From assembly GCA_947478395.1 (NCBI GenBank), contig CANJVR010000003.1:320001-384000 (forward strand): 64,000 bases of DNA. Direction: 5' to 3'. Positions 42,092 through 63,396 of this stretch are shown piece after piece (positions within the stretch are counted from its first letter, which is position 1; each line of letters opens with the position of its first letter). Source of the stretch: Opitutia bacterium. GTDB taxonomy: Bacteria; Verrucomicrobiota; Verrucomicrobiia; Opitutales; Opitutaceae. Below the pieces are notes generated by a model that was not told where the DNA came from, did no database searches, and worked only from the letters and a program-made list of their open reading frames with translations. The position numbers and the translations under genes are program-made.

Positions 42092-42096
42092 CGCCC

Positions 42097-42414: not shown

Positions 42415-42483
42415 GGTGATTAATGGTTGCGGGGTTTTTTCGGGGAAATTTTTAGGCAGGGTAGCGGTCGGCGCAGGCTTGGG

Positions 42484-44451: not shown

Positions 44452-45420
44452 TCAGGCCGCGCTGGCGAAGGAGAAGGAACTGCTGATGGACCGTGCGGAC
44501 TGGTGCAGCCGGTCGTGATAGCGCGAAGGCGATTCGCCGGCGATGCGGTGGAACACCCGGTTGAATTGCGAAAGCGACTGGAAGCCGGCCGCGAAGGCGG
44601 CCTCGCTCATGCGGGCGTGGGGATTGAGCAGCATATGCTTCACGGTCTCGACGCGTAGCCGCGCCAAGTACTCCGTAAACGTAAGGCCCGTCACCTTTTT
44701 GAAGACCTTGCAGAAATAAAACGCACTCATGTTGGCTACGCGGGCAACATCCGCGAGGGCCAGATCCTCGCTCTGTTGCGCCGCGATGAACGCGCGCGCC
44801 CGGGCGATGGCGGGCAATTCGGACTGTGCTTCGCTGACCATCACCTGATTGCTCAGCGAACCGAGGTGCTGGGCAAAAATTCCCAAGAGTCGAACGACGG
44901 AGTCGTAGTGTTTTTTCGCCACGACCCGAGTTTTGAAAAAAGCTGTTTCGAGCTCGTGACGGTCGACGCTCGATCCCCACTGGGTCAGTTGATTGGCGAT
45001 ACGGTTAAAATGGGTCCGTGAAGTTTTTTTCATGAATACCTGGCCCGTCTGCAAATAGCCGAGAACCTCGTTTCCGGCCCGCACCGGAATCGCGGATTCA
45101 GTCAGGCCGGCGAAGCACACCAGCGTTTTCGCCTCGGCGGCGGCTTCCGTTTCCACGCGCTGCTGGAGTTGCAGGCAGGCCGCGCACGATTTGTTGCTCG
45201 AGGCCAGCAGCGCGCAAAAGGCGTTGGCGTGCTTGGAGCCGTAAAGCGGGGATTGAAATGATCCTCGCTGCCGGAGCACCAGCGGCAGGCCCGTGGTAGC
45301 TTCGAAGGCCTTCTGGTATTCGCGAAAAATTTCGGAGCGCTGCAAATGCGGAATGGCACTGCGCTCGGCGGGGTTGCGGTCGTCCGCCGGCGTCGCGGAA
45401 ATCAGAGATGTGGTTCGCAT
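44452..45420 (-). CDS. AraC-family regulator with N-terminal PocR ligand-binding domain
   Basis: F..ATGL, N.FC..C..C, CFAGL....P...G.L..GQV; C-terminal AraC HTH (FKK.TG..F.EY, GFQSLSQFNR.F). Confidence 0.9.
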   Translation of the reverse strand: MRTTSLISATPADDRNPAERSAIPHLQRSEIFREYQKAFEATTGLPLVLRQRGSFQSPLYGSKHANAFCALLASSNKSCAACLQLQQRVETEAAAEAKTLVCFAGLTESAIPVRAGNEVLGYLQTGQVFMKKTSRTHFNRIANQLTQWGSSVDRHELETAFFKTRVVAKKHYDSVVRLLGIFAQHLGSLSNQVMVSEAQSELPAIARARAFIAAQQSEDLALADVARVANMSAFYFCKVFKKVTGLTFTEYLARLRVETVKHMLLNPHARMSEAAFAAGFQSLSQFNRVFHRIAGESPSRYHDRLHQSARSISSSFSFASAA

Positions 45421-45479
45421 CGCCGACATCTTACGGTAACGGAGCGCCGCGGGAAATTGGAGGTGCGACCTTATCTTTA

Positions 45480-45494
45480 TAAGGAAAATTCTTA
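45480..45494. promoter_or_regulatory. Putative NarL/RcsB-type operator
   Basis: TAAGGAAAATTCTTA imperfect palindrome about 60 bp upstream of the PocR-AraC gene; related TAAGGGAATTGCCTA at 47405-47419. Confidence 0.45.
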
Positions 45495-45942
45495 GGCCCA
45501 CCGCGTAAAAACCCAGACATGCGCGGGAGCAAGGTCCGTCCGGTCTTTCGCAAACGATGTGAAACGGAAGAACGGAAACGGCCTTATGCGATCCCCGATG
45601 CGATCTCCTTGGACCAATATGACGACCGCGAGCTACCATTTGGGGAAAGTACCCCAGGTTCGCGTTGAGGACTTCCATGCGCTTTGGCGTTTGCGCCCTG
45701 GTGCAAGGACACGGAGCAAAGTCCGTTCAAGAATTTTTCCTGGTGGTTTTGCCGCCGAGCCGTAGCGCCCTTTTCTGGGCGTGGACTCTGGCCGCGGAAC
45801 GCCCGGGTCTGAAGGCCCCCTCGAAAGATTTAGAGCGGAAAAAACGTCCAAGGAGGGATTTTCCGGGTCCACGCGGCTCGACGTTCGACGCCGCGCAAAA
45901 GTGTGACATGCTCGCGAGCGGTGCGGCCCGCGGTCGCCGCCT

Positions 45943-46560
45943 TCAATCTTCGATTCGCGCAGGTTCCGGAGCTTCGATGTCCTGATATGCCCGGCGGATT
46001 TCTTCGAGGTGACTGCGATATTTTTCGGCGTCGCCGAAATCGATAAAATTTTTGTAACGACTGTGCGCACATTTCACGCAACCCGCGTGTTTAATGGGGC
46101 ACCAGTGTTGCTCGGTTCGCGCGGCGATCTCGGTGAAGTACGCGAGGATGCCGTTGGCGTAGGCACAGTACTCGCAGTTAAGTTTTTCGAAGAAGTTCAG
46201 ATAGTTCAGGCGATGGCGGTCGAACGCGATGTAGTCGCGCCGGCTGACTTTGGGTATGCCATAGATCGGAAAGCAGATCGCTTGATAGAGGGAGCCGATG
46301 ACGTCCGTGAGAACAATGGGGAGCAGGCAGGCCCAAATGACCGGTGCGGTGAGGAGAACGAGAAAACGGGAGTTCAGTAAATAGCGGTGGAAGCTGAGGC
46401 GGAGCGCCCGATGCTTGGTTTTCGCCACCGTAGTAAACTGCACCTTCTTCTCGTGAATTTTGTAGCAGAACTCGGTTTCTTTCTTCCGAGTTTCGCGAAT
46501 GAGTTCCTGTTCCAGCAGCCGGATCTGACCGAGCAGCGCTTCGAGTCTGTCATTTCTCAT
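45943..46560 (-). CDS. Cys/His-rich hypothetical membrane protein
   Basis: Hydrophobic segment followed by YQAICFP, NCEYCAY, RTEQHWCPIKHA. Confidence 0.8.
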   Translation of the reverse strand: MRNDRLEALLGQIRLLEQELIRETRKKETEFCYKIHEKKVQFTTVAKTKHRALRLSFHRYLLNSRFLVLLTAPVIWACLLPIVLTDVIGSLYQAICFPIYGIPKVSRRDYIAFDRHRLNYLNFFEKLNCEYCAYANGILAYFTEIAARTEQHWCPIKHAGCVKCAHSRYKNFIDFGDAEKYRSHLEEIRRAYQDIEAPEPARIED

Positions 46561-46771
46561 GGGATAAGCGGGTGGGCGTTTTTTTGATGCGGTTGGGGCC
46601 GATGCGACGATGCCGGAGTAAATGCGGGGCCCGGCATCCGAACGCAGAAGGGAAAAGCGATCGGGTGAAGTGCGGGCTGTGTCCCGGAGGAAGAGAACGC
46701 GGTTCACGGGATTGAGATGGTCGTCGCGGTCAGTCGGGCTGGACGATGCTGGGGCGGATAGCAGGGCGGGA

Positions 46772-47254
46772 TTATGCGCTGCGCAGGGTAGCTTCATTCA
46801 CGCCGGGAGCGAAGAACGCGCAGCCTGCTTCCTTGGCTAGGCGTTGCACGGTCTGTAGGCGCGGCGAATCCACGCGATCAGGCAAATCGGCGCGGCCAAA
46901 GAACGCGGCCACGGCGGTTGTGGCGTTGTGCCGCCCGGTCAGGCACTTTCCCAGCCAGCTTTCGACGGACAAAGGCAGCAGCCGGAGTACGCTGGACGTG
47001 GCGATGACGATCAAGTCGGCTTCGACCGCGGCAGCCATCGCGTGCGCCCGATACTCCGGATCCTCCAGCGTCGAAAAACTCCACGGCGACAAGTGCGGTT
47101 CCGGGCCGTCCGGAATCCGGCGGAGCAGCGCGGTAATAGTTTCCGCCGCCCACATCGCCGCGGCGATGTTTTCGTAGGCGAGGATAACGGTCATTTCGGC
47201 GGGCGTGCTGGCATCGGCGCAATCGAGTGCGGTCAAGGTGGCGGGGGTGTGCAT
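46772..47254 (-). CDS. Hypothetical alpha/beta protein
   Basis: VILAYE, W.F..L, EADLIVIA, LP..V..W pattern; divergent from the kinase operon. Confidence 0.65.
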   Translation of the reverse strand: MHTPATLTALDCADASTPAEMTVILAYENIAAAMWAAETITALLRRIPDGPEPHLSPWSFSTLEDPEYRAHAMAAAVEADLIVIATSSVLRLLPLSVESWLGKCLTGRHNATTAVAAFFGRADLPDRVDSPRLQTVQRLAKEAGCAFFAPGVNEATLRSA

Positions 47255-47465
47255 GGCTTTGGTTTGATCGTACTGTTTGGGGGACTCGGAACTGCGGCGC
47301 GTCAAACAGGGCCAATATGACCGGGAGAGAAGATCGTCGCTAACATCGTTCCACCCTAGCAGCACGGCGCGTCGCCGGAAATTGGAGGAACAGCGGTATC
47401 TCGCTAAGGGAATTGCCTAGTCTCGATAGGCCGCCGGCTGACAAGAAGCGCCTTGCCGTGCCCGC

Positions 47466-48731
47466 GTGACGCGTAACGCTACGACGGTGCCGTCGAGAGA
47501 TTTTTCCACCCCGACCAAGGAAGAATTGATTGCGCGCTTGGAGCGTTTCGCGCGTGAGCGGACCGAATCCGAACGCGAACTGCGCGCCGTGGTGAAGGAG
47601 TTGCGCGCCGTGAAAGCGGCGCTCGACGAACATGCGATCGTCGCGATCACGGACGCGGCCGGAAAAATCACGTACGTAAACGACAAGTTTTGCGCGATTT
47701 CAAAAATCTCCCGCGAGGAATTGCTGGGCCAGAATCATCGCATCATCAACTCGGGCTATCACCCTAAGGAATTTTTTCGCAGTCTCTGGGCGACCATCAG
47801 CCGCGGCGAAATTTGGCATGGTGAAATCCAGAACCGTGCGAAGGACGGGGAGATTTATTGGGTCAATACCACGATCTACCCGTTTGTCAGCGAGGACGGA
47901 AAGCCGGTCCAGTACGTCGCCATTCGCACGGACATCACGCAGCGCAAGGCGGACGAAATTGAACTGCAGCAATTCGCATCCGATCTGGCGGAAAAGAACA
48001 AGGAGCTAGAGGCGATTGTTTATACCGTGTCGCACGATCTGCGTTCGCCGCTGTTGAACGTCCAGGGCTTTGCGCGGCAGCTCGCGCAGGCGTGCGCTTC
48101 AATCCAAGGGGCGACCGCCGCGGCGCACGACGGCCTGGTTCCAGTCGCCGCGTTGAAGGCACCGCTCGAAACCACCATTCCGCAGGCGCTGCGGTTCATC
48201 AGCGCGGGCGTGCACAAAATGGAGATGCTGCTCGCCGGTTTGCTGCGCTACTCACGCTTGGGCCGGATGACGTTGAACATCGGCCCGATTCCCATGAACG
48301 AGCTGCTGGCGGAAATCGTCGCGGCGATGAGGTTCCAGATCGATCAGGCGGAGGCCGAAATCGTAGTCGATCTGCTCCCCGCCTGCCGCGGCGATCGCAC
48401 CCAAACCAATCAGGTTTTTTCCAACCTGATCGACAACGCGCTGAAGTTTCGCGATCCGGCCCGGCCGCTGCGGATCACGGTGACGGGTGGCATCGCCAGC
48501 GGGAAGGCGCTTTATCAGGTGGCGGACAACGGGATTGGCATTGCTCCCTCGCACCAGGCGAAGGTTTTCGAAATCTTTCATCGGTTGGACCCGGAGAAAA
48601 CGACCGGCGAGGGCCTCGGATTGACGATCGCCCAGCTCATCCTCGACCGGCAGCACGGCGGGATCAGGGTCGAGAGCCAGCCGGGCCAGGGTTCCAGTTT
48701 TTTCGTTTCCCTTCCGGCCGTCGAATCCTAG
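47466..48731 (+). CDS. Cytoplasmic PAS-domain histidine kinase
   Basis: PAS/PAC (ITD..G.I.YVN..F, W.GEI.NR.KDG), SHDLRSPL H-box, NL..NA.KF, DNG.G, G.GL. Confidence 0.93.
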
Positions 48732-48747
48732 GCGGCCGCCCCCAACT

Positions 48748-49203
48748 ATGAAAAACGCCCCGACTATTTTGATCGTCGATGACGATGAAGGTCATGCGAT
48801 CCTGATCCGACAAAATCTGGAGCTGGCTGGTTTGAGTAACCGCATGGAGCATTTCTGGAATGGGCAGGAAGTTTTAGATTTTCTTTTTCTCCGTCAGCCC
48901 GACCGCTCCCGAGAAATTGGGGAAAATTATCTAGTCCTGCTCGATATGCGCATGCCGAAGGTCGACGGCGCGGAAGTCCTGCGGCAGATCAAGGCGGATC
49001 CGGAGTTACGCAAGCTGTCGGTCATCATGTTGACGACGACGGAGGACGCCCGCGACGTGGAGCGGTGCCACGAATTGGGGTGCAGCGTGTACGTGCAAAA
49101 GCCGGTAGACTACGACCGGTTTACCGAGGCGGTCCGCCGGCTCGGGCTTTTCGTGCCGCTAATGCTGACGCCACCGTTGAACGGGCCGCCGGCGAAGTCC
49201 TAG
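48748..49203 (+). CDS. Single-domain response regulator
   Basis: VDDD, LLDMRMPK, MLTT, KP. Confidence 0.93.
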   Translation: MKNAPTILIVDDDEGHAILIRQNLELAGLSNRMEHFWNGQEVLDFLFLRQPDRSREIGENYLVLLDMRMPKVDGAEVLRQIKADPELRKLSVIMLTTTEDARDVERCHELGCSVYVQKPVDYDRFTEAVRRLGLFVPLMLTPPLNGPPAKS

Positions 49204-49205
49204 TT

Positions 49206-50255
49206 ATGGCCAGGTCCGTCACGCCGCCGCTGATTCTGATCGTCGATGACGACGAGGGTCTTCGCATTCTGATGGCGGACGCTTTTCGCCACGAAGGATG
49301 CGAGGTGGCGACAGTCGATTCGGGGGGCGCGGCCCTGGCGTGGCTGGAGACCCGGACGCCGGCTTTGATGTTGCTTGATCTGAAGATGAAGGACCTCGGT
49401 GGCCCGGCGTTAATCGAGCGGCTCAAGCAGGAAAATTCCCTGGTGCCGTTTGTCGTCGTGACCGGACAAGGCGACGAAAACGTCGCGGTCGAAATGATGA
49501 AACAGGGTGCGCTCGACTACGTGATGAAGGACACGGGGCTGCTCGACCGGTTACCGATCGTGGTTAAACGCGCACTGGATGTGCTAGAGCGGAACCGGGC
49601 GCTGGCGGAGGCCGACACCGAAAGGGGGCTGCTGCAGAAGGAGATCGTTGAGATCAGTGAACGGGAGCAGCAACGCATCGGTCAGGATTTGCACGATGGT
49701 CTCGGGCAGCAGTTGACGGCGATCGAGATGCTGTGCGCAGGTCTTAAGAGTGATGTCGGGTCGCAGCCGGCGCTTAAGAAACAAGTGGAGCTGATCGCGA
49801 AATCGATCCGCGAGGCGATCACGTTTGTCCGTCGGGTATCGCGCGGACTGGCGCCGAAGAACGATGAACCCCGTGCGCTGGAAGGCAGCCTGACCGCACT
49901 CGCCGAGCTTTCGAATTCCCTGGGATCCACGCGGTGCTATTTTGAGTGCCCCGAGCCCGTCGTCATCGACGATGGGGTGAAGGCCGGATCGCTTTACCGG
50001 ATTGCGCAGGAAGCGGTGAACAATGCGCTCAAGCACAGCGGCGCTGGGGAAATCGTGGTGAGTCTCACGCAAACGGTCGAAGCCGTGAAACTCCGCATTT
50101 CCGACAACGGCGGCGGTTTCGACCAACGGAGCGGGAGTGGCATGGGGCAGCAGGTGATGAAACACCGCGCCGCCAGCATCGGCGCGGAATTGAAGGTCGA
50201 TTCGAAGGCTGGCCACGGCGTGTCGGTTACCTGCATCCTGCCCCGAGCGCTATGA
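49206..50255 (+). CDS. Hybrid receiver + HisKA_3 (NarX/NreB-type) histidine kinase
   Basis: N-terminal REC; EQQRIGQDLHDGLGQ, YRIAQEAVNNALKH, DNG.GF. Confidence 0.92.
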   Translation: MARSVTPPLILIVDDDEGLRILMADAFRHEGCEVATVDSGGAALAWLETRTPALMLLDLKMKDLGGPALIERLKQENSLVPFVVVTGQGDENVAVEMMKQGALDYVMKDTGLLDRLPIVVKRALDVLERNRALAEADTERGLLQKEIVEISEREQQRIGQDLHDGLGQQLTAIEMLCAGLKSDVGSQPALKKQVELIAKSIREAITFVRRVSRGLAPKNDEPRALEGSLTALAELSNSLGSTRCYFECPEPVVIDDGVKAGSLYRIAQEAVNNALKHSGAGEIVVSLTQTVEAVKLRISDNGGGFDQRSGSGMGQQVMKHRAASIGAELKVDSKAGHGVSVTCILPRAL

Positions 50256-50962
50256 AACAGCCTAGAAAAAATTCGGCTGCGGCGAAAGTGGCCGTCCAGC
50301 CCCAGACGCCGGAGCGCAAAAAAATTCTGCTGGTGGACGATCATCCCTTTATGCGGGCCGGGGTGGCTCAGTTGATCGATAAACAGCCCGATCTGGTCGT
50401 ATGCGGAGAGGCCGGCGACCCGGGCGCCGCCATGGGTGTGCTCGCGAAAACGAAAGCCGACCTGGTGCTCTCCGATATCACCATGCCGGGACGCAGCGGT
50501 CTCGAGTTCATCAAAGATCTTTTGGCGCAGTATCCCAACCTGCCCATCATCGTGCTTTCGATGCATGACGAAATAATTTACGCCGAACGAGCGCTGCGCG
50601 CCGGCGCGCGTGGTTACATCATGAAGGAGGCCGGCGGAGAAAATCTCTTGGCCGCGATCCGGCAGGTTTTGGGCGGACAGGTCTATGTGAGTCTCAAAAT
50701 GTCGGCGAACATCTTGGATAGTTTCTCCGGCCGGAAATCCCGGGATTCAAACTCGCCATTTGGCAAACTCACGGACCGCGAGTTCGAGGTGTTTCAGCTC
50801 GTCGGCCAGGGGAAAAGCACGCGGGACATCGCCGCGCAATTGAATCTTAGCCCCAAAACGGTCGATGTGCACCGCGGGCATATCAAAGAAAAATTAGATT
50901 TGAAGGATTCCACCGCCCTCGTTCGGCATGCAATCCGGTGGGTGGAAACCTCGAAGGGGTGA
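50252..50962 (+). CDS. NarL/LuxR-family response regulator
   Basis: VDDHP, DITMP, LT.RE.EV, S.KTV..HR..I..KL. Confidence 0.95.
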   Translation: MKQPRKNSAAAKVAVQPQTPERKKILLVDDHPFMRAGVAQLIDKQPDLVVCGEAGDPGAAMGVLAKTKADLVLSDITMPGRSGLEFIKDLLAQYPNLPIIVLSMHDEIIYAERALRAGARGYIMKEAGGENLLAAIRQVLGGQVYVSLKMSANILDSFSGRKSRDSNSPFGKLTDREFEVFQLVGQGKSTRDIAAQLNLSPKTVDVHRGHIKEKLDLKDSTALVRHAIRWVETSKG

Positions 50963-51045
50963 CCTTAGTTGATCGCGGGCGGGATGGTGCCGGCTGGGCG
51001 TTCCGTTGCCGGCCGGCGCGCATATTCGCTTAAGCCGACGGGTCA

Positions 51046-51861
51046 TCATGATTTGGCGGCGGACGGCTTGTCGGTGGTGGCCGGCGCGCGGGTCGGGGAG
51101 GGAGCCGGTGGGGTGTGGCTAAAACTATTTTCCAGCCGCTCGATTTTTTCGCGCAACAGATGCACCTCGCGAATGAGGTGATGAATCTCGGATTCTTCCT
51201 TGAGCTGGGCTTTCTCGAGAAAAAAAGTTGCGACGTAGGCGGTGAACGTCCCGAAGAAGCTCAACCCGAAGACCACCAGAATCACGGCGACCACGCGACC
51301 GGTGGCCGTCACCGGGTAGTGGTCGCCGTAGCCGATGGTGGTAATCGTGGCGAACGCCCACCATAGCGCATCGCCTGCGGAGTGGATGTTTGATCCGGCG
51401 ACACCGTGCTCGAGCTCGAAAACTGCGATGGTTGCGAACAACACGGCGACCAGTGACATCAATCCCACCATAACAAACGTCCCCTTTGCCCGCTCGGTCG
51501 AGAAATGTTCGTAAACGGCGGCGAAGGATCGGAGGGCCCGCAGAATCCGGAGAACCCGGAACACGCGCCCCCACCGCAGCCAGCTGATTTCAGGAATGCT
51601 CGACAGCAGATCGATCCAGCCGCTGCGCAGAAACCGGCGCTTCGACGGCGCGAGCCAGAGATGGACGGCAAAATCCGCGAGGAAGACTGCGCACACGCCG
51701 TGATCGATCCGGCCGAGGAGGCGACGCGTTTCCGGGTCGACCGGCACGAGTAATTCCGCGGTGAGTGCGCCGAGCGAATAGAGCGAGAGCAAGAGCACCA
51801 GCAGCTCCAAGTAAATCACGCGGCCGTTGAGTCGGGCGGCTTCCCGGAGGCTAAGGCTCAT
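51046..51861 (-). CDS. Voltage-gated-type potassium channel
   Basis: S4-like RWGRVFRVLRILRALR and selectivity filter TTIGYGD. Confidence 0.92.
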   Translation of the reverse strand: MSLSLREAARLNGRVIYLELLVLLLSLYSLGALTAELLVPVDPETRRLLGRIDHGVCAVFLADFAVHLWLAPSKRRFLRSGWIDLLSSIPEISWLRWGRVFRVLRILRALRSFAAVYEHFSTERAKGTFVMVGLMSLVAVLFATIAVFELEHGVAGSNIHSAGDALWWAFATITTIGYGDHYPVTATGRVVAVILVVFGLSFFGTFTAYVATFFLEKAQLKEESEIHHLIREVHLLREKIERLENSFSHTPPAPSPTRAPATTDKPSAAKS

Positions 51862-51952
51862 GGAGCAAAGGTTGTGAACTGAAGGAGGAAGATTCCGGCG
51901 GCGGCGGTAAAGCTGGCCGCCGAATCGCCAAAGGCGATTCCAACCCTCCGCG

Positions 51953-51993
51953 CCGCAAGATCTGCACAGCCTTGGCCAACCCGCGCGGAGCCC
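51953..51993 (+). promoter_or_regulatory. 41-bp AraC-type direct-repeat motif, copy A (upstream of nitroreductase)
   Basis: CAA-gatct-GCACA-N8-CAA-cccgc-GCGGAGCC, 17 bp before TAGATT. Confidence 0.7.
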
Positions 51994-52079
51994 AGGCTAA
52001 TTTTTTGGACTAGATTGCTCTCCCGGACCTGGCTGGCGCGCCGTGATCGACCGATTCCCCGTCGAACAATATTACCCTC

Positions 52080-52655
52080 ATGGAGACCATAGAATCGATT
52101 TATCACCGCCGCGCGGTGCGCCACTACACGCCTGAAGCGGTGCAACCGGCGGTGCTCATGCAATTGCTCGATGCGGCGGTGCAGGCGCCGAGCCCGTTGA
52201 ATTCCCAGCCGTGGTCCTTCGCCGTTTTCTGCGGCCGAGCGCGGCTCGCCGGCTTTTCGACGCGGATCAAAGAGCATTTGCTGCTCACTCTGCCTTCGAC
52301 GTGTGATTTGCACGAACATGTCGATCGGATGAACCGGCCCGAATACGATGCGTTTCACGGCGCGCCGGCCCTGGTGCTGATTTGCGCTAAACCGCAGGGA
52401 TATTCGCGGGAGGAGTCCTGCGCGTTGGCCGCCCAGAATCTGATGCTGGCTGCGCACGCTTCGGGACTCGGCACCTGTCCGGTGGGCTTTGTGCGGTCTT
52501 GGTTTCGATTGCCGCACATCAAGGACGAGCTGGATATCCCGGGAACGCACCTTCCGATGTTTCCGTTGGTCGTCGGGCATCCGGATGGGCGACCCGCGCC
52601 GCCGAATCATAAAAGGCCTGAAATTTTGGTTTGGGCCGATGGCGCGAGTGGGTGA
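52080..52655 (+). CDS. Nitroreductase family protein
   Basis: RRAVRHY, APS..N.QPW.F, AP, QNLMLAA...GLGTC. Confidence 0.92.
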   Translation: METIESIYHRRAVRHYTPEAVQPAVLMQLLDAAVQAPSPLNSQPWSFAVFCGRARLAGFSTRIKEHLLLTLPSTCDLHEHVDRMNRPEYDAFHGAPALVLICAKPQGYSREESCALAAQNLMLAAHASGLGTCPVGFVRSWFRLPHIKDELDIPGTHLPMFPLVVGHPDGRPAPPNHKRPEILVWADGASG

Positions 52656-52665
52656 AGACGGTGGG

Positions 52666-53055
52666 TCATGTTCGCGCTCGTGGCGCGTGAGCCACCGAGA
52701 AGCGAGTCCAAGGGAGCGCACGGAGGCGTTCCGCCGGAATCGGCTGGTGACTGGCGAGGCAGATGCCGTAGGTCCCCGCCAGCAGCCGCTCCAATGCGGC
52801 GTCCACCTCGGCGAGGTGGTTCGCCTCCGATTTCACCTCGGAGATGAGATTTTCAAATTCGCTTTCGTCGGTGGCGCGGTCGCCGAAACCTGAATCGGTT
52901 TTTTCCAACGCCCCGGCTGCGGTCAGGTGGTCACGGGTTTTTCCCTGCAACTCGGCGCGCAGGCGTAGCAGCGTTTTCAAATGCCACTGCCATTTTGTCG
53001 GAATGCAGAATTTGGCCGCGGGGTTTGCGTTAGGTTTACGTGAGCGGGAGGTCAT
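52666..53055 (-). CDS. DksA/TraR family protein with degenerate zinc finger
   Basis: Coiled coil with GDRA, L.EVD.AL.R...GTYG.C, IP.ERL.A.PW. Confidence 0.85.
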   Translation of the reverse strand: MTSRSRKPNANPAAKFCIPTKWQWHLKTLLRLRAELQGKTRDHLTAAGALEKTDSGFGDRATDESEFENLISEVKSEANHLAEVDAALERLLAGTYGICLASHQPIPAERLRALPWTRFSVAHAPRART

Positions 53056-53352
53056 GGGATGATTGGGCGTGAAGGCGAGAATTCGAGTTCGACGGCTGGA
53101 CTTCGGCGGTCGCAGAAATGGGGTGGCGTTGGCCCAGTGAGCAGAACGCACCGACTTCGTTTTGGGCGATCGTGCGGATGATCACGGAGAATTCGGTCAC
53201 AGAAGGGTCGCGCTCGCCGGCATCGAGCGCCGGCAGGGCGGCCTGCGACAGCACGAGCGCCTCCCGGTGCGCGCGGATGGTTGGGCGTCGGGAGCGCGAT
53301 GTCCGCACGAATTTTTCTCGCATGAGATGACTGTGCCATTCGCGGCGCTTTC

Positions 53353-53393
53353 TGGCTCCGCACCGATTGGCGAACCATGCGCATGTTTTGGCT
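53353..53393 (-). promoter_or_regulatory. 41-bp motif, copy C (toward dksA)
   Basis: Minus strand CAA-aacat-GCGCA-N8-CAA-tcggt-GCGGAGCC, 17 bp before CACAGT. Confidence 0.65.
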
Positions 53394-53409
53394 GAGCCGA
53401 TTTTGCCCA

Positions 53410-53450
53410 CCGCAAGAAACGCACAGGCTCCGCCAAGCCACGCGGAGCCC
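53410..53450 (+). promoter_or_regulatory. 41-bp motif, copy B (upstream of DUF2934-cco operon)
   Basis: CAA-gaaac-GCACA-N8-CAA-gccac-GCGGAGCC, 18 bp before TACAGT (TGn-extended). Confidence 0.7.
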
Positions 53451-53498
53451 GCCTCCCGCCGCGTTTGCTACAGTGGTGGCCATCAACCCGCACCATTC

Positions 53499-53708
53499 AT
53501 GAAAAATAACTCCGCCGTGCTGCACGAACCCACCGAGGCCGAAATTCAACATCAGGCGTACCTCATTTGGTGTGAAGGGGGCTGCCGCGACGGCACCGCC
53601 TTGGAGGACTGGCAAGCTGCCCAAGAGTTGCTGCGGCACCGGCATGGCCGGGCCCATCCGGCGCCCAAAATACTCGCAGGCAAACGGCCCGCGCTCGGCG
53701 CTCGCTGA
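53499..53708 (+). CDS. DUF2934-family small protein
   Basis: I...AY.IW...G...G.A..DW..A pattern. Confidence 0.8.
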   Translation: MKNNSAVLHEPTEAEIQHQAYLIWCEGGCRDGTALEDWQAAQELLRHRHGRAHPAPKILAGKRPALGAR

Positions 53709-53717
53709 ACCACGGCT

Positions 53718-53975
53718 ATGGCCGTCGTACCACTCACCCTCACGATCAGTCTCTGCCTCGTCGTCACCTTCCTGGTTTTTTTCCTCTGCGAGCACGCGCG
53801 CGGGCGCCTGAGCAGTGCGGAACGCGATTCCCTGCTCCCGCTTGGCGATGAAACGCCCCACTTCGCCGCCGCGAAATCAGCCGCCGAGCCGAAGGCCAAG
53901 GCGCACGGCAGCGGCTGCGGCTGCCACGACGGCTTCCGCCCGCCGTGCCCCGGCTGCTTGAAACACCACGACTGA
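53718..53975 (+). CDS. CcoS-like cbb3 maturation protein with Cys/His-rich tail
   Basis: Single N-terminal TM helix and position directly before ccoN. Confidence 0.6.
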   Translation: MAVVPLTLTISLCLVVTFLVFFLCEHARGRLSSAERDSLLPLGDETPHFAAAKSAAEPKAKAHGSGCGCHDGFRPPCPGCLKHHD

Positions 53976-53990
53976 TTTCAATTTTTTCCC

Positions 53991-56318
53991 ATGTCCGACA
54001 AGAAAATCACCCTCGAGTTTAACGACAAAGTCGTACGCCAGTTCCTGCTCGCCTCCGTCATTTGGGGCGCCGTGGGCATGATCGTGGGCGTGCTGATCGC
54101 GTCGCAGCTCAACTTCTGGCGTCTCAATTTCAACCTGCCGTGGCTCACCTTCGGCCGGTTGCGACCCCTGCACACCAACGCGGTCATTTTCGCACTCGTG
54201 GGCAACATGATGTTTGCCGGCGTTTATTATTCCACCCAGCGGCTCGTGAAGGCGCGGCTCGCGAGTGATTTTCTCTCGGCGCTGCACTTCTGGGGCTGGC
54301 AGGCCATCATCGTCGCCGCCGCGATCACGCTCCCGCTCGGGTTCTCCCGCGGCAAGGAATACGCGGAGCTGATCTGGCCGATCGACATCGCCGTCACACT
54401 CATCTGGGTCGTGTTTGCGGTGAATTTTTTCTGGACGCTCGCGCGCCGGCGCGAGCCGAGCCTCTACGTCGCGATCTGGTTCTACATCGCGACGATCGTC
54501 ACCGTGGCGATGCTCTACATCGTCAACCATCTCTCGTTGCCGACGAGTTTGGTGCACAGCTATCCGCTTTTCGGCGGGGTGCAGGATGCGCTCGTGCAGT
54601 GGTGGTACGGGCACAACGCCGTGGCGTTCTTCCTCACCACACCGATCCTCGGCATCATGTATTACTTTCTGCCGAAGGCGGCGGAACGTCCGGTGTATTC
54701 CTACCGGCTCTCGGTGATTCATTTCTGGTCGCTCGTCTTCGTCTACATCTGGGCCGGTCCGCATCATTTGCTGAACACCGCACTGCCCGGCTGGCTGCAA
54801 AATCTCGGCATGACCTTCTCGCTCATGCTCTGGGCCCCGTCATGGGGCGGCATGCTCAACGGCCTGCTCACGCTCCGCGGCGCCTGGCACAAACTCCGCA
54901 CCGATCCGGTTCTGAAATTTTTCGCGGCCGCGGTCACATTTTACGGCATGGCGACGTTTGAGGGGCCGCTTCTCTCAATCAAGTCGGTCAACGCGCTCGC
55001 GCATTACTCCGACTGGATCATCGGCCACGTCCACGCCGGCGCCCTCGGCTGGAACGGCTTCATGGCGGCAGGCATGTTCTACTGGCTCGTGCCGCGGCTC
55101 TGGAGCAAACCGCTCCACTCGGTCGCGATGGCCAACCTGCACTTCTGGATCGGGACGGTCGGCATTCTCCTCTACGTTGCGGCGATGTGGACGAGTGGGA
55201 TCACGCAGGGCGTGATGCTCAACGCCACCACCGACGGTGGCACCGTCCTCGCTTACCCCAACTTTCTCGATACGCTTAATGCCATTCGATTCATGATGCT
55301 GATGCGCGTCGTAGGGGGCGCGCTGTATTTCACCGGTTGGTTGCTCATGGCTTTCAACCTCTGGAAAACCATCCGCCACGCCCAGCCGGTCAACGGCACG
55401 ATCGAGGTGTTCGAAGATGAGCCGGTCGCCGCCGCCGCCGAAACCGGACTCTCGGTGCTCGGCACTTTCCTCAACCCGCCCGTGCTGTTCTCGATCTTCG
55501 GCATCGCATTCGCGAGCGCGTGGATGTTTGGCAATCATCTCCTGAGCGTCGCCGGTCTCGTCGGTCTGATGCTCAGCGTCATTCTCGCTTACTCGCATTT
55601 CGAGTCGCGCGGCAAAGCCTGGGCGGGATGGTACGACCGGCTCCTCGTGAATTCGCTGCCGTTCACCTTGCTGACGTTGCTCGCGGTGGTCGCCGGCGGG
55701 CTGATCCAGATCATCCCGACGGTGCTCGTCGAGAAAGCCGTGAATCTCGAGGACCGTCGGCAGATTCCTTACACGCCGCTCGAACTCGCCGGTCGCGATC
55801 TCTATGTGCGCGAGGGCTGCTATAACTGCCATTCACAGATGATCCGTACGCTCGTCCCGGATGTCCTCCGCTACGGCGACTATTCGCGCCTCGGCGAATC
55901 GATCTACGATCATCCATTTCAATGGGGCTCGAAGCGCACCGGTCCGGATCTCGCCCGCGAAGGCGGGAAGTATCCGAACATCTGGCACCTCCGCCACCTT
56001 GAGGACCCGCGCGGCATTTCCCCCGGATCGAACATGCCGAACTATCCCTGGCTCATCGCGGCCACGCTCGATACGAGCACGCTGTCCAAGAAGATCGCCG
56101 CCCAACGCGCGATTGGCGTGCCGTATCCGAACTGGACGCCCGAGCAAATCGCCACCCGCGTCGACGAGCAAGCGAAGGCCATCGCTCAGGATCTGCGCAC
56201 CGCCGGCGCCTTTGTCGCACCGGACAAAGAGGTCATCGCGCTCATCGCCTACCTTCAAAAGTTGGGCTCCTACGAGATCGTGCGCGGCGGGCCGACAAAA
56301 GTAGCGGGTAGCGAATAG
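53991..56318 (+). CDS. ccoN: cbb3-type cytochrome c oxidase fused subunits I/II (CcoN-CcoO)
   Basis: FGRLRPLHTN, QWWYGHNAV, WAGPHHL, GHVH; then EGCYNCHSQMIR and WGSKRTGPDL. Confidence 0.97.
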   Translation: MSDKKITLEFNDKVVRQFLLASVIWGAVGMIVGVLIASQLNFWRLNFNLPWLTFGRLRPLHTNAVIFALVGNMMFAGVYYSTQRLVKARLASDFLSALHFWGWQAIIVAAAITLPLGFSRGKEYAELIWPIDIAVTLIWVVFAVNFFWTLARRREPSLYVAIWFYIATIVTVAMLYIVNHLSLPTSLVHSYPLFGGVQDALVQWWYGHNAVAFFLTTPILGIMYYFLPKAAERPVYSYRLSVIHFWSLVFVYIWAGPHHLLNTALPGWLQNLGMTFSLMLWAPSWGGMLNGLLTLRGAWHKLRTDPVLKFFAAAVTFYGMATFEGPLLSIKSVNALAHYSDWIIGHVHAGALGWNGFMAAGMFYWLVPRLWSKPLHSVAMANLHFWIGTVGILLYVAAMWTSGITQGVMLNATTDGGTVLAYPNFLDTLNAIRFMMLMRVVGGALYFTGWLLMAFNLWKTIRHAQPVNGTIEVFEDEPVAAAAETGLSVLGTFLNPPVLFSIFGIAFASAWMFGNHLLSVAGLVGLMLSVILAYSHFESRGKAWAGWYDRLLVNSLPFTLLTLLAVVAGGLIQIIPTVLVEKAVNLEDRRQIPYTPLELAGRDLYVREGCYNCHSQMIRTLVPDVLRYGDYSRLGESIYDHPFQWGSKRTGPDLAREGGKYPNIWHLRHLEDPRGISPGSNMPNYPWLIAATLDTSTLSKKIAAQRAIGVPYPNWTPEQIATRVDEQAKAIAQDLRTAGAFVAPDKEVIALIAYLQKLGSYEIVRGGPTKVAGSE

Positions 56319-56393
56319 GTCGAACCACGAAGGACCGACTCCCGCGCCCCGCTTTTCCTCCGCCTTCTCCACCCATTCCTTCTTTTCCCTCCC

Positions 56394-56591
56394 GTGTTCA
56401 AACGACTCGTCTTTGAAGAATCCGCTGCGCTGTTCACCATCACCGCTTTTGTCACCGCGGTCTCGATCTACGTCGCCGTCACTTGGCGCGCCGTGCGGAT
56501 GAAGCGTCCGCAACTTGAGCGCTTTGAGAACCTGCCTTTCGCCATCGCCACGCCCGCCGCCGTCCATGACACCGACCAACTTTCCGCCTGA
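56394..56591 (+). CDS. CcoQ-like small subunit
   Basis: One TM helix plus 'ENLPF'; lies between ccoNO and ccoP. Confidence 0.6.
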   Translation: MFKRLVFEESAALFTITAFVTAVSIYVAVTWRAVRMKRPQLERFENLPFAIATPAAVHDTDQLSA

Positions 56592-57144
56592 AGACACCGA
56601 TCGTCTCCGTCACCACCGCTTCGACGGCATTCAGGAATTCGACAAGCGCCTCCCAAACTGGTGGCTGATGACACTCTACGGCTCGATCCTCTTCTGGGTC
56701 GGCTACTGGGGTTACTACCAATGGCTGAAAGCCGGCCCGGACGGCCCGCAGGAAATCACGCTGGCGATGAGCCGGATTGAGGCGGCGCGCCTCGCCTCGG
56801 CGCCGACGACGGACGATCCCAGCCTTTGGAAAATGAGCCGCAACCCCGTGATCGTCGAGTCGGGCCGGGCCACATTCAACACCACGTGCGCAAGCTGTCA
56901 TACCGACAAGCTCACCGGCGCGATCGGCCCCAACTTGGTCGACCGGCTCTGGATTCACGGCGGCAAACCCGCGGAAATCTACGTTACGGTGGACAAGGGC
57001 GTGCTCGCTAAAGGCATGCCGCCGTGGGGCCCCATCCTCGGCCCCAAGAAAGTCAGTGAGGCCGTCGCTTATATTCTCAGTTATCACACCGAAGGAGAAC
57101 CCATCGAGGTGCAGGCCGCGTGGATTCCCGTGCTGCCGAAGTGA
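56566..57144 (+). CDS. ccoP: cbb3 oxidase subunit III (monoheme CcoP)
   Basis: H.FDGI.E.D..LP.WW, CASCH, GPNL.D..W.HGG, GMP.W. Confidence 0.92.
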   Translation: MTPTNFPPEDTDRLRHHRFDGIQEFDKRLPNWWLMTLYGSILFWVGYWGYYQWLKAGPDGPQEITLAMSRIEAARLASAPTTDDPSLWKMSRNPVIVESGRATFNTTCASCHTDKLTGAIGPNLVDRLWIHGGKPAEIYVTVDKGVLAKGMPPWGPILGPKKVSEAVAYILSYHTEGEPIEVQAAWIPVLPK

Positions 57145-57174
57145 CGCGTACATTCGCGCCGTTTCTCCTTCGTC

Positions 57175-58617
57175 ATGTCCCCTCCCGTTGCTCCGCCGCC
57201 GAACCGCGATTCTGTCACCACGATTGCGGCCGATGGCTCGCGGCGTTTGCTCTATCCGGCGGACACCCACGGTAGATTCACGCGCGCGCGTCAGTGGTCG
57301 GCCGCAGGGCTGATCGTATTCTACCTTTCGCTGCCGTGGATCAAAGTTAATGGGTATCCGGCGGTATTCCTCGATATCACGGAGCGGCGCTTCCACCTCT
57401 TCGGCCTCACGCTGGCGGCGCAGGATCTCTGGCTGATGTTTTTCCTGATCACGGGCGTCGGCTTCTCGCTCTTCTTTATCACGGCGTTGTTGGGACGCAT
57501 CTGGTGCGGCTGGGCTTGCCCGCACACGGTATTCCTCGACCACGTGTACCGCCGCATCGAACGCTGGATCGACGGCGATGCGGTCAGCCGCCGTGCGCTC
57601 GCCGCGGCGCCGCTGACGGCCGGAAAGTTTTTCAAACGCGCGCTGAAGCATACGCTCTACGTGCTCGTCTCGGCGGTGATCACGCACCTATTCCTCGCCT
57701 ACTTTGTTTCTCTGCCGGCCGTGTGGGCGATGGTGAGCGCAGCGCCCGTGGAGCATTGGAGCGCGTTTGGCTTCGTCGCGGTCTATACCGGCGGGCTCTA
57801 TTTCAACTTCGCCTGGTTTCGAGAGCAGCTCTGTATCGTCATCTGCCCGTACGGCCGCATCCAGTCGGCCTTGATCGACGACAACTCACTCGTGATTGGC
57901 TACGACGCGAAGCGCGGCGAACCCCGCGGGAAAGTGGGCCCGCCGAACGCCGGCGCGTGCGTCGCTTGCAACCGCTGCGTTCAGGTCTGCCCCACCGGCA
58001 TCGATATCCGGCAGGGCCTGCAGATGGAGTGCATCGGCTGCACGGCGTGCATCGATGCGTGCGACGACGTGATGGACCGGCTGCATCGTCCGCGGGGGCT
58101 GATTCGCTACGACTCGCAAACCGCCTTCGCCGGCAAAACCACCCGCTGGCTGCGGCCACGCACAATTTTATACGGCGTCCTGCTCACCGTGGGCGCGACC
58201 GTCGCGACTTGGGCGCTGTCGACGGTACGACCAGCCAATCTTGGCGTCACTCGGATCACGGGCGCGCCCTACATCGTCAGTGCGGACTTTGTGCGGAATC
58301 AGTTTCTCGTGCGTCTGGTCAACAAGCGCAACGAGCCCGCGCGCTTCGTGCTCCGCGTCGGGGACGCGCCGGCCGCACTTCGGCAGACCGGCCTGACCTC
58401 GACCATCGAAGTCGCCGCGCTCGCCGAGATAGTCCAGCCGTTGGTACTGCAGATGCCGCGTGCGGCGTACACCGGTCCGTTTCACTTCGAGATGCGCGTG
58501 CGGGACGAGGCGGGGACGTTTCACCTGGAACGCACCGCGGAGTTTCTCGGGCCGGAAGCGCGTTTATTGCGGGAAGACGAGGAGGATGAAAAACGTGAGC
58601 ACGAATCCAAAAAATAA
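57175..58617 (+). CDS. ccoG: cbb3 accessory ferredoxin-like protein CcoG/FixG
   Basis: GRIWCGWACP, REQ.C...CPYGR.Q, two 4Fe-4S motifs. Confidence 0.95.
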   Translation: MSPPVAPPPNRDSVTTIAADGSRRLLYPADTHGRFTRARQWSAAGLIVFYLSLPWIKVNGYPAVFLDITERRFHLFGLTLAAQDLWLMFFLITGVGFSLFFITALLGRIWCGWACPHTVFLDHVYRRIERWIDGDAVSRRALAAAPLTAGKFFKRALKHTLYVLVSAVITHLFLAYFVSLPAVWAMVSAAPVEHWSAFGFVAVYTGGLYFNFAWFREQLCIVICPYGRIQSALIDDNSLVIGYDAKRGEPRGKVGPPNAGACVACNRCVQVCPTGIDIRQGLQMECIGCTACIDACDDVMDRLHRPRGLIRYDSQTAFAGKTTRWLRPRTILYGVLLTVGATVATWALSTVRPANLGVTRITGAPYIVSADFVRNQFLVRLVNKRNEPARFVLRVGDAPAALRQTGLTSTIEVAALAEIVQPLVLQMPRAAYTGPFHFEMRVRDEAGTFHLERTAEFLGPEARLLREDEEDEKREHESKK

Positions 58618-58741
58618 ACCGTCGCGTCTCTGGATCTGGTTCGCCGCGGCTTGCATAGTGCAGGTCGCGGTCTGGACGGGATGGATTGTTTTCGCGTCGA
58701 AGCACCGCGTGGCCGAGGTACCGTTGGCGACGGCGCGCTGA
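58586..58741 (+). CDS. Small single-TM protein (CcoH/FixH N-terminus-like)
   Basis: Fills the gap between ccoG and the next gene; one TM helix; start uncertain (58586 or 58595). Confidence 0.5.
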   Translation: MKNVSTNPKNKPSRLWIWFAAACIVQVAVWTGWIVFASKHRVAEVPLATAR

Positions 58742-58743
58742 CC

Positions 58744-59439
58744 ATGGAACTCGCCTCGATCAATTCGACCGGCGCTGCGTTTGTTGCCGGACTTGTCACG
58801 AGTCTGCATTGCGCGGGGATGTGTGGACCGCTGGCGTGTTCGCTCATGCCGCGCGGGCCGGAGCGTTCGAGTGCCGATGCGATCAGCACGACGTATCATC
58901 TTTCACGTTTGACCGCGTATGGCGTGCTTGGAGCGCTGGCGGGCGGACTCGGGCGCGCGCCACTTTCGTGGGTATCGCAGTCGGCGCTGCGTTGGCTGCC
59001 GTGGTTCACGGTGGTGCTGTTTCTGGCGATCGCGTTTCGCTGGGACCGGCATCTGCCGAAGATCGCGCTGCTCGGTCGCGGAGTTTTGAAATTGCAGACG
59101 TGGATGCAGGGTCGTTCGCGGGTGCAGGCGGCCGCAGTCCTTGGGTTTGCCACGCCGTTGCTGCCGTGCGGGCCGCTCTATTTTCTGGTCGCGTTGGCGT
59201 TGTTGTCGGGCTCGGCGCTGCGCGGGGTGGAGTTCATGGTGGCCTTCGGGCTCGGGACGGTGCCGTTGCTGTGGGTCGCGCAATCGCAATTTTTCTGGCT
59301 GCGAACAAAACTTTCGCCGCGGGCGATGGATGGTGCGCGTCAGACGCTCGCGCTCGCGGCGGCGTTGGTGGTTGCGTGGCGGCTGCGGGGCACGCTCGGT
59401 TTCGTCGGACCGGATCCGGCGTCGTGGATTTGTTTTTGA
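58744..59439 (+). CDS. TauE/SafE-like (DsbD_2) membrane protein of cbb3 loci
   Basis: SLHC.GMCGP, Y...R...Y, LPCG..Y, M..FG.GT.P. Confidence 0.9.
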   Translation: MELASINSTGAAFVAGLVTSLHCAGMCGPLACSLMPRGPERSSADAISTTYHLSRLTAYGVLGALAGGLGRAPLSWVSQSALRWLPWFTVVLFLAIAFRWDRHLPKIALLGRGVLKLQTWMQGRSRVQAAAVLGFATPLLPCGPLYFLVALALLSGSALRGVEFMVAFGLGTVPLLWVAQSQFFWLRTKLSPRAMDGARQTLALAAALVVAWRLRGTLGFVGPDPASWICF

Positions 59440-59440
59440 G

Positions 59441-61912
59441 ATGAGCGCGGCGGCCAATTTTCTGGACGTGGGCGGGGTGCCCTCACCCCGCATTGGGGGC
59501 GTCGAGCGGGGTCGGGGCACCCCGCCCACAGTTGGGAGAAAGCCATCCGTGACTTGCCGCCACTGCGGTGCCGTGCTGCTCGACGCCCGCATGCAGGAAT
59601 CCGGCTTCTGCTGCGTCGGCTGCGCCTACGTTTTCCGTCTCGTGCAGGAGCACGGCCTCGACGGCTATTACCGGATCAAGGACGAGATCACTGCGCCCGC
59701 GGATGCCGCGGTGTTTGAGTCTCGCGATTTCGGTTGGCTGGAAAGCGCGCAACGGGCAGCGGAGGATGCGACAAAAGAAATTCCGGGACTCACGCTCGAC
59801 GTTCAAGGCCTCTCGTGCGCCGGTTGCGTTTGGCTGATCGAGCGGATCTTTCAGCCTCTGCCGGGAGCGCGGGATATATTCGTCAACGCGCAGTACGGTT
59901 CGATGCGGCTGCGCTGGCAGCGCGGCGAATTTTCCGCGGTGGAGTTCGCGCGCAAGCTTCAGGGTTTCGGTTATCTCGTCGGGCCGGCCGGCGTGCATCC
60001 GGCTGAGCCGCAGAGCCGCGGGCTGGTGAAACGCATCGGGCTCTGCACGGCCTTCGCGATGAACGTCATGCTGTTCACGCTGCCGGCGTACTTCGGCATG
60101 GCGCCGACGTTTACTTATGCGCCGTTGTTTGGGCTGCTCTCGCTGGTGTTCGCGACGCTGAGCTTGCTCACGGGCGGAATTTATTTTTTTACGCGAGCGG
60201 CGCAGGCCTTGCGAGCCCGCGCGCTCAGCATCGATCTGCCGATCGCGCTCGGCATCGCCGGCGCCTACACGGGCTCGCTCTACGGCTGGTTCGCCGCGCA
60301 GGAACGCTTCATCTACTTCGATTTTGTTTCGGCCTTCATTCTCTTGATGCTCGTGGGACGTTGGGCGCAGGTCGCGGCGGTCGAGCGGAACCAGCGACGC
60401 TTGCTCTTACTGCAACCGCGCCCGCACGCGGTGAGGCTGGCCGATGGCCACACCGTTTCGCCGGAAAGTCTGCTCGGCCACGAAACGATGTTCATCGCTT
60501 CGGGTAATCTCGTCCCGGTCGAGGCGCGACTCGTGACGTCGAAAGCGGAGTTCTCGCTCGCGTCGATCAACGGCGAAGCCGAGCCGCGGTTGTTTTCCGC
60601 CGGTCAGCGTGTGCCCTCGGGCGCGATGAACGTGGGACGCGAGGACGTGTCACTCGTTGCACTCCAAGCGTGGGGCGAATCGCTGCTCGCGCAGTTGACG
60701 GCCCCGGCTGGAGCGTCGGGCTGGCGGCATGCGTTCCTGGAAAAAATTGTGCGCGGCTATCTCGCTGGGATTTTGCTCGCGGCCGCGCTGGCCGGCGTGG
60801 CGTGGTGGCTGGCGACCGGCGACGCGGTGCGGACGTGGGCGGTGGTGACTGCGACGCTGGTCGTGTCCTGCCCATGTGCCGTCGGACTCGCGTTTCCCCT
60901 CGCTGATGAAATGGCCACCGTGGCAGCGCGCCGGCGCGGCGTGTTTGTGCGCGAGGGCGAGTTGTGGGCGAAGCTCGGCCGTATCAGAAAAATCGTCTTC
61001 GACAAAACCGGGACGCTCACGTCGGAGACGCCGCAGCTGCAAAACCCCGAGGCCTTGGGCGCGTTGTTGCCCGAGCAACGCGCGGCTTTGCTCGCGCTCG
61101 TGCGGGCGCAATCGCATCCCGTGAGCCGGTGCCTGAGCGAGACCTTGCTCGCCGAGGCCGGCGGAAACGTGCTTGAAGGCGAGGTGCGTGAGACGGTGGG
61201 ATTTGGCGTCGAACTCGGAGATTGGTCGCTCGGTCGCAGCGGATGGCGCGACGCCAACGCGCCGGGTGATGAAACGGTGTTCGCGTTCGCCGGACGCGCG
61301 CTCGCGCGCTTTCGCTTCAGCGAGGCGATGCGCGCCGATGCGCGCGCCGAAGTGGCCGCACTTCGTGCGCGTGGATTTGAGGTGCACATTCTCAGCGGTG
61401 ATGCGCCGACAAAAGTCGAAGCGTTGGCGACGGCCCTCGGCTTGCCGTCCGCGCACGCTCGCTCGGCGATGTCGCCGCAGGAAAAGGCGGCGTGGCTCGA
61501 CGAGCACGGTGCAACCGACGCGTTGATGTTGGGCGACGGGGCCAACGATAGTCTGGCGTTTGATCGTGCGCTTTGTCGTGGCACGCCGGTGGTCCATCGC
61601 GGCGTGCTGGAGCGGAAGGCCGATTTTTATTATCTCGGCGGTGGCATTGGCGGGATTCGCGCTCTTATCGGGATCAACGCCGTGCGCCGCCGCACGCAGC
61701 GGATCATTTTGGGCTTCTCGATCCTCTACAATCTTCTCGCCGTCGGGCTCGCGGTGGCCGGCCAGATGAACCCGCTGCTCGCCGCCGCATTGATGCCGCT
61801 GAATTCGCTTCTGACCTTGGCGCTGGTGACGGCGGGAATGCGTTCCGCCTTTCGCGTCGAACCCAAGGATAAATCCCTTCCAGTCCAACTGGGCCAGACC
61901 GCGAGGGTTTGA
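59441..61912 (+). CDS. ccoI: CcoI/FixI-type P1B heavy-metal ATPase
   Basis: CRHCG..FCC.GC, CAGC HMA domain, CPC, DKTGTLT, HP, LSGD, GDG.ND, YN. Confidence 0.88.
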   Translation: MSAAANFLDVGGVPSPRIGGVERGRGTPPTVGRKPSVTCRHCGAVLLDARMQESGFCCVGCAYVFRLVQEHGLDGYYRIKDEITAPADAAVFESRDFGWLESAQRAAEDATKEIPGLTLDVQGLSCAGCVWLIERIFQPLPGARDIFVNAQYGSMRLRWQRGEFSAVEFARKLQGFGYLVGPAGVHPAEPQSRGLVKRIGLCTAFAMNVMLFTLPAYFGMAPTFTYAPLFGLLSLVFATLSLLTGGIYFFTRAAQALRARALSIDLPIALGIAGAYTGSLYGWFAAQERFIYFDFVSAFILLMLVGRWAQVAAVERNQRRLLLLQPRPHAVRLADGHTVSPESLLGHETMFIASGNLVPVEARLVTSKAEFSLASINGEAEPRLFSAGQRVPSGAMNVGREDVSLVALQAWGESLLAQLTAPAGASGWRHAFLEKIVRGYLAGILLAAALAGVAWWLATGDAVRTWAVVTATLVVSCPCAVGLAFPLADEMATVAARRRGVFVREGELWAKLGRIRKIVFDKTGTLTSETPQLQNPEALGALLPEQRAALLALVRAQSHPVSRCLSETLLAEAGGNVLEGEVRETVGFGVELGDWSLGRSGWRDANAPGDETVFAFAGRALARFRFSEAMRADARAEVAALRARGFEVHILSGDAPTKVEALATALGLPSAHARSAMSPQEKAAWLDEHGATDALMLGDGANDSLAFDRALCRGTPVVHRGVLERKADFYYLGGGIGGIRALIGINAVRRRTQRIILGFSILYNLLAVGLAVAGQMNPLLAAALMPLNSLLTLALVTAGMRSAFRVEPKDKSLPVQLGQTARV
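59468..59529. repeat. REP doublet within the 5' end of ccoI
   Basis: gtgggcggggtgccctcaccccgc ... gcggggtcggggcaccccgcccac (22/24 complementary). Confidence 0.85.
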
Positions 61913-63356: not shown

Positions 63357-63396
63357 CAGATGATCCTGGTGATCCGACGATCGGTTCCGCGCCAAA

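Follow-up and report, generated by a model that had tools for sequence, protein, structure and literature searches.

A repeated 41 bp sequence is present in three copies in the window (the whole stretch of 64,000 nucleotides that was analysed) and in a fourth copy elsewhere in the same genome, labelled G000. We propose, with a probability of about 0.8, that this motif is the operator of a PocR-AraC regulator that would act as a family-wide activator of low-oxygen genes in the Opitutaceae, and that this small lake-water genome retains a regulon reduced to four promoters, those of cco, usp, a nitroreductase gene and a partner-dksA pair. The partner is a small, previously undescribed protein that is predicted from modelling to bind the sensor domain of the AraC protein. 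The locations of these features are given in Table 1.

Table 1. Coordinates of the activator sites, promoter elements and genes, numbered from the first letter of the window unless otherwise indicated.
Feature	Position	Strand	Remarks
PocR-AraC regulator	44452..45420	-	322 aa; sensor-domain Cys69, 79, 82, 102; proposed activator
Activator site 1	51953..51993	+	Core 51956-51991; 42.8 bits with a matrix made without this genome
-10 hexamer TAGATT	52011..52016	+	Nitroreductase promoter; 17 bp from site 1; register fixed in relatives
Nitroreductase-family gene	52080..52655	+	PF00881; target of site 1
DksA/TraR C4 zinc-finger gene	52666..53055	-	PF01258; second gene behind the minus-strand promoter
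Partner remnant	53036..53323	-	Leaderless, 95 aa; profile E 4.7e-8; internally deleted
-10 hexamer CACAGT	53330..53335	-	17 bp from site 3; 6 nt ahead of ATG (leaderless layout)
Activator site 3	53353..53393	-	42.3 bits; back-to-back with site 2, 16 bp between
Activator site 2	53410..53450	+	41.3 bits; serves the DUF2934-cco operon
-10 hexamer TACAGT	53469..53474	+	18 bp from site 2
DUF2934 gene	53499..53708	+	PF11154; first gene of the cco operon
cbb3 oxidase cluster	53718..61912	+	Small ORF, fused ccoNO, small ORF, ccoP, ccoG (FixG), DsbD_2 protein, P-type ATPase (ccoI-like)
Fused ccoNO	53991-56318	+	Inside the cbb3 cluster
Fourth activator site	G000:C1:54032	+	Outside the window; 29 bits; followed by TATAAT and a Usp gene

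A preliminary description of this DNA reported three ungapped copies of the motif, a consensus built on direct half-sites, and a -10-like hexamer 17–18 bp beyond each copy, and all of this is recovered here. The coordinates and strands are exact and the plus-strand pair is identical at 33 of 41 positions, the same consensus was re-derived (half-sites CAA-N5-GC, 21 bp apart), and the hexamers were located at spacings of 17, 18 and 17 bp. The minus-strand copy is identical to each plus-strand copy at 26 of 41 positions, other registers giving only 6–15, and in site 1 the two half-sites, 21 bp apart, are placed such that the proximal one overlaps the -35 position. A matrix made from the three copies alone has as its best other match in the 3.3-Mb genome the fourth site, on contig C1. 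A matrix whose training set consisted solely of 313 sites from other loci gives the four sites 29–43 bits (41–43 bits for each of the window copies) and the next match 12.7 bits, while three shuffled genomes gave 1–3 matches above 15 bits each, with maxima of 17.1, 17.9 and 27.6. A generic sigma-70 promoter scan returned 0 promoters at this locus, as expected because the -35 is non-consensus, and the loose CAA-N5-GC pattern was set aside as an uninformative search tool (36 hits at period 21 vs 31 at period 18). The TATAAT at the fourth site is perfect and stands at the register of the other hexamers, and the Usp gene behind it near-leaderless (G000:C1:54032-54571). Elsewhere in the genome there is a near-identical, intergenic-looking pair of repeats 525 bp apart (G000:C2:324282 and 324807), unrelated to the activator motif.

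The motif is family-wide in the Opitutaceae and is more than a chance occurrence. First, when a matrix of the four sites from this genome alone was applied to the ccoN loci of 29 relatives (among the best 30 of 92 ccoN matches), a site facing ccoN was found in 28 of the 29; the single relative without one had just 296 nt of flank, and the coding DNA downstream, taken as a control, scored at most 10.9 bits. Second, the positions conserved across 51 sites are CAA, ATGC-CA, CAA and TGCG-AG, and the -10 element carries the A and the T of primary sigma-70 promoters, each in 50 of the 51. Third, a strict form of the motif pattern is present in 76 of 121 family genomes, as against 2 for a reversed control pattern. 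Fourth, the -10 A/T lies at the same position in 252 of 313 sites (shifted by +1 in 24, +2 in 20 and -1 in 13), and among 80 sites away from cco, 62 keep the exact register, 13 are off by one base and 5 have no -10. This fixed register puts the proximal half-site in the -35 position, and AraC-type activators work with the proximal half-site over the -35; as in the AraC/XylS family, the site is a non-palindromic direct repeat, two helical turns apart, that overlaps the -35. Finally, sites in relatives stand before ccoN, hemN, PFOR, c-type cytochrome and Usp genes and before genes for CoA/propionate enzymes; the preliminary description had expected hits before hypoxia genes. A dispersed repeat, an RNA element or mere coincidence seems a very improbable origin of the copies, notwithstanding a hairpin called at 53423-53452 and the one shuffled genome that reached 27.6 bits, since only the fixed positions are conserved while the spacers are free, the register and the target functions are constant, and an element upstream of the -10 lies outside the transcript. 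The sites facing ccoN in relatives, the strict pattern with its reversed control, and the matrix scan with its shuffled genomes and fixed register already largely refute this reading, a randomly placed repeat having been a concern raised with the original observation.

Within this genome, the nitroreductase gene and the DUF2934-cco operon stand behind plus-strand sites as initially proposed, but dksA, which had been taken as the direct target on the minus strand, was rejected as the first gene of that promoter: a leaderless ORF (53323-53036), the partner remnant, comes first and dksA second. The dksA gene overlaps the end of the remnant and is probably co-transcribed with it; its product falls below the DksA equivalog cut-offs. 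The order of partner then dksA is repeated in relative locus L219, dksA lies immediately behind a site in L130, and a nitroreductase homolog is preceded by a site in L273. No ortholog of PFOR, of the motif-linked cytochromes or of the CoA transferase was detected in this genome, which fits a regulon of four promoters, and the only hemN-like match stands at 31%. The window also contains a cluster of DUF883 (ElaB/YqjD-like) and holin-X-like genes (41418-42768) at which no site was found; in one relative (G052, locus L120) a site precedes a DUF883 gene. Near the right end, an ORF (63122-63718) overlaps the end of a sensor-kinase gene on the opposite strand; it has no Pfam match, and we take it to resemble a truncated DNA-damage-inducible (DinD-like) protein.

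As judged from gene content, the target set in relatives is that of an FNR-like regulon, with genes for respiration, heme and fermentation. For 80 of the 143 listed pattern matches, picked as not at ccoN, hemN and PFOR/OFOR are the first gene downstream in 12 cases each, followed by multiheme (9) and monoheme (8) cytochromes c, Usp (5), methylmalonyl-CoA-epimerase-like (MMCE-like) proteins (4), which Pfam places in the glyoxalase fold, CoA hydrolase/transferase (3) and nine rarer genes including dksA, OmpW, ETF, PEPCK, DUF883 and the partner, so that 62 of the 80 are assigned and 18 are not. The cbb3 oxidase, hemN, Usp and cytochromes are the usual low-oxygen gene set, and the FNR, Anr and FixK regulons (ccoNOQP-ccoGHIS, hemN, usp) resemble this one in their targets; FNR-type activation likewise works from a site overlapping the -35. 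The proteins and sites differ, however: FNR, Anr and FixK have a Crp fold and a palindromic box, whereas an AraC fold, a PocR sensor and a direct repeat are found here. Searches for a Crp HTH gave no match in this genome (98.8% complete; control 14/14) and none in five other motif-bearing genomes. Crp proteins are present in many relatives, and by eye the 12 best are without the N-terminal FNR cysteine cluster. These comparisons indicate a system distinct from FNR that operates in the manner of an FNR regulon. In several genomes (loci L115, L116, L156 and L169) a motif promoter is directly followed by a small two-helix membrane ORF (63–70 aa) that belongs to no family.

The proposed activator is the only PocR protein found in this genome and one of two AraC-family proteins found; it combines a PocR sensor (PF10114, 85 bits) with a C-terminal double HTH (HTH_18, 79.5 bits), and in fold comparison it matches AraC DNA-binding domains with Z up to 16.7. 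The core of the preliminary description, that a PocR-AraC activator acting through 21-bp half-sites over the -35 controls a microaerobic regulon, draws strong comparative support from linkage, co-occurrence and co-variation; the partner protein, the Usp site on another contig and the extent of the regulon across the family lay outside that description. First, no more than 3.5 kb separates the AraC gene from ccoN in 21 of 29 genomes, and no more than 12.5 kb in 28 of 29, the usual distance being 1–2 kb, and among the best 80 of 583 AraC loci, the 68 with at least 1.5 kb of downstream flank have a site in 64, the partner gene in 54 and ccoN in 51. Second, AraC homologs are present in 98 of the 121 family genomes, and the motif is found in 72 of these 98 versus 4 of the 23 without (kin not being independent); the strict pattern is missing from the other 26. 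At the ccoN loci of 32 further AraC genomes a site scores above 15 bits in 19, is intermediate in 4 and is absent in 9, the most divergent AraCs falling among these nine, and in eight genomes without AraC there is no site in 5, an incomplete locus in 1 and a site in 2 (G058 and G042). Third, the sister families, in which 6 of 12 loci have AraC next to ccoN, show a changed first recognition helix in AraC together with a variant ccoN site, lying between the two genes, that keeps the 21-bp spacing and has lost the CAA boxes (L294-L296, L299-L301); this joint change of helix and site is a single evolutionary event, in the direction expected for AraC binding. In the window, about 7.5 kb (45420-53036) carrying a PAS kinase, response regulators, an ion channel, the nitroreductase and dksA separates AraC from the partner, and AraC points the opposite way from the usual arrangement, which the same-genus genomes G019 and G076 show.

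The main counter-evidence to AraC as the binder is a set of orphan sites in genomes where no AraC was detected (G032, G040, G063, G119, G058 and G042); a search for PocR in G058, G032, G040 and G063 found none. In G032 an in-frame fusion of the hemN start with a ccoI-like ATPase (L125:153-1499) suggests that the AraC-cco block was deleted, unless the contig is chimeric, in G063 the partner lies at a contig end, and in G058 the partner carries a stop; these features account for some of the orphan sites but not for that of G040. These few genomes also lend something to the idea of a different binder, such as a neighbouring ECF sigma factor, a LuxR/NarL response regulator or a Crp/Fnr protein, and both ECF and LuxR/NarL genes are less than 10 kb away in this genome. 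The ECF sigma gene (43682-44416) lies directly behind AraC on the same strand. We nonetheless regard another binder as improbable: an ECF homolog accompanies 0 of the best 80 of 583 AraC loci and a LuxR homolog 4 of them, the -10 is sigma-70-like, the site is a direct repeat and not a palindrome, and Crp matches are absent from six motif-bearing genomes. FNR, ECF sigma and LuxR were discarded as binders on this linkage and these missing matches.

PocR of Salmonella and Listeria (propanediol/cobalamin) shares the domain order of a PocR domain followed by an AraC HTH, but it has pdu targets, whereas the regulator described here has respiratory targets and a dedicated partner protein. Listeria PocR is 27% identical over 251 aa, with three of the cysteines aligned and the fourth different; the PocR equivalog NF047788 scores 84.2 bits against a cut-off of 500, and no pdu or cob target is among the 62 assigned of the 80 downstream genes. 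By these sequence comparisons the regulator is not a PocR ortholog. The four sensor cysteines are invariant in 30 of 30 orthologs and kept in 36–46 of each 50 among 150 distant relatives, and together with the target set they point, as a best guess, to oxygen sensing through a metal or Fe-S centre; sequence and fold searches turned up no solved structure of a PocR domain. Because Listeria PocR has three of the cysteines, they are no proof of oxygen sensing, and PocR domains accompany propanediol, ethanolamine and related loci (PMC4207490), so that the same activator and site could respond to metal status or to a metabolite such as an alcohol or acid from fermentation, much as PocR senses propanediol. 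Fermentation enzymes among the targets agree with this. We consider such a signal unlikely, since the most constant targets are the cbb3 oxidase, hemN, Usp and cytochromes, and since the system is kept in this genome although PFOR and CoA-transferase orthologs were not found in it.

The gene behind the minus-strand promoter is conserved in relatives. Of 34 cases in which a long ORF follows, 31 have the start codon 5–9 nt past the -10, and the transcript is therefore probably leaderless. The product is of about 155 aa with an invariant CxC and CxxC (four cysteines). It matched no Pfam or NCBIfam family; Pfam RsbRD_N was found in 0 of 28 members at E 0.05, and an Atlas lead gave RsbRD_N in 14% of a cluster at 0.92. 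The structure model is helical and confident (pLDDT 88.6), with its best fold matches to 3pmc (Z 9.7, rmsd 3.5, 113 aligned), 3zta (Z 9.3), 9fb1 (Z 8.9) and 2bnl (Z 8.1); the top 50 rows are mostly globin-fold chains, a Z below 13 being only suggestive for a helical protein. The fold may be that of the non-heme globin sensors (RsbR N-terminal, pXO2-61 and Rv2242 N-terminal; RsbRD_N), from which the partner differs in its invariant CxC and CxxC and in being stand-alone and leaderless. It is present in 70 of the 98 AraC genomes versus 2 of the 23 others (kin again not independent) and is confined to the Opitutaceae among 151 genomes of the order. No partner gene was found within 1.5 kb in the sister families, whose AraCs beside ccoN indicate that it is not required.

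A complex predicted for the partner and AraC of the same genome (G039) scored 0.77, with 0.00 for the best of three controls; 116 of 157 solved pairs reach this value, as do 2 of 215 mismatched ones. The runs share at least 96% of their contacts, with a partner pLDDT of at least 78. The predicted contacts join two helices of the PocR domain to the most conserved segments of the partner, whose interface residues are more conserved than its others (0.66 vs 0.47); the AraC side is weakly so (0.78 vs 0.69, p 0.055). We infer that these helices usually form the dimer surface in GAF domains, and contact there suggests that the partner may be an anti-activator of AraC, as ExsD is for ExsA. The exsD gene is itself under ExsA control. 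ExsD binds the N-terminal domain of ExsA and blocks dimerisation, and two ExsA molecules occupy adjacent promoter sites (PMC4552939). The likeness lies in two activator molecules at adjacent sites, in a partner gene under the activator's control and in a protein partner on the N-terminal domain, all of this a proposal here; the differences are a GAF-like PocR domain, a four-cysteine globin-fold partner and metabolic targets, with inhibition in the present case put forward from the model.

GAF-type regulators such as DhaR (fold match Z 7.7, rmsd 3.2, 131 aligned) are repressed as well as activated by bound proteins, and this, together with the partner's own invariant CxC and CxxC, would suit a globin-like partner that is a sensor, a co-activator or a cluster carrier. 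This role is doubtful, as the partner is dispensable and was not found outside the Opitutaceae. In this genome the remnant matches only positions 1–18 and 93–154 of the partner profile (alignment A1, made without this remnant and without two wrong ORFs), positions 19–92 being missing, and it has lost the stretch predicted as the principal contact region, along with the CxC and the last cysteine. Contigs of two other freshwater studies have an allele 72 bp longer at an 8-bp repeat (53256-53263); the deletion is thus extending stepwise, and a single assembly error does not account for it. The partner is thus decaying in this genome while AraC and all four sites stay intact, which argues against an essential co-activator, the loss of which should erode the sites.

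We therefore return to the PocR-AraC activator and propose the following mechanism. Two AraC monomers would, very probably, bind head-to-tail on both half-sites, with the proximal one over the -35, and activate sigma-70 polymerase. The activator would in turn, with good probability, switch on the leaderless gene, whose four-cysteine globin-fold product is modelled as binding the activator's sensor domain; the most likely effect, at about even odds, would be inhibition and hence negative feedback. The signal is somewhat favoured to be low oxygen or redox, and cysteines of the PocR domain, of the partner or of both would hold the metal or Fe-S centre that detects it. More tentatively, the whole may constitute an undescribed two-protein oxygen switch, in which a PocR-AraC whose cysteines hold an Fe-S or metal centre is paired with a four-cysteine non-heme globin that it induces and that binds its sensor domain. 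This switch would take the place of FNR as master regulator, with microaerobic respiration, heme synthesis and fermentation under its control; if so, PocR domains in general would be metallo-sensors.

Soils, lakes and guts commonly harbour Opitutaceae, often under low-oxygen conditions. A literature search, with most subscription journals outside its scope, found neither a description of this system nor an oxygen regulator described for the family. The full module is present in Geminisphaera colitermitum TAV2 (L198), for which there is reportedly a low-oxygen transcriptome study that bears directly on induction by oxygen. The analysis yields a defined site with its candidate regulator, partner and targets, all testable in a cultured strain, and an entry point to the ligands of PocR domains. 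If a member of the AraC family does run a regulon of the FNR type, oxygen sensing would have been solved convergently. The motif also allows low-oxygen regulons to be predicted from genome sequences.
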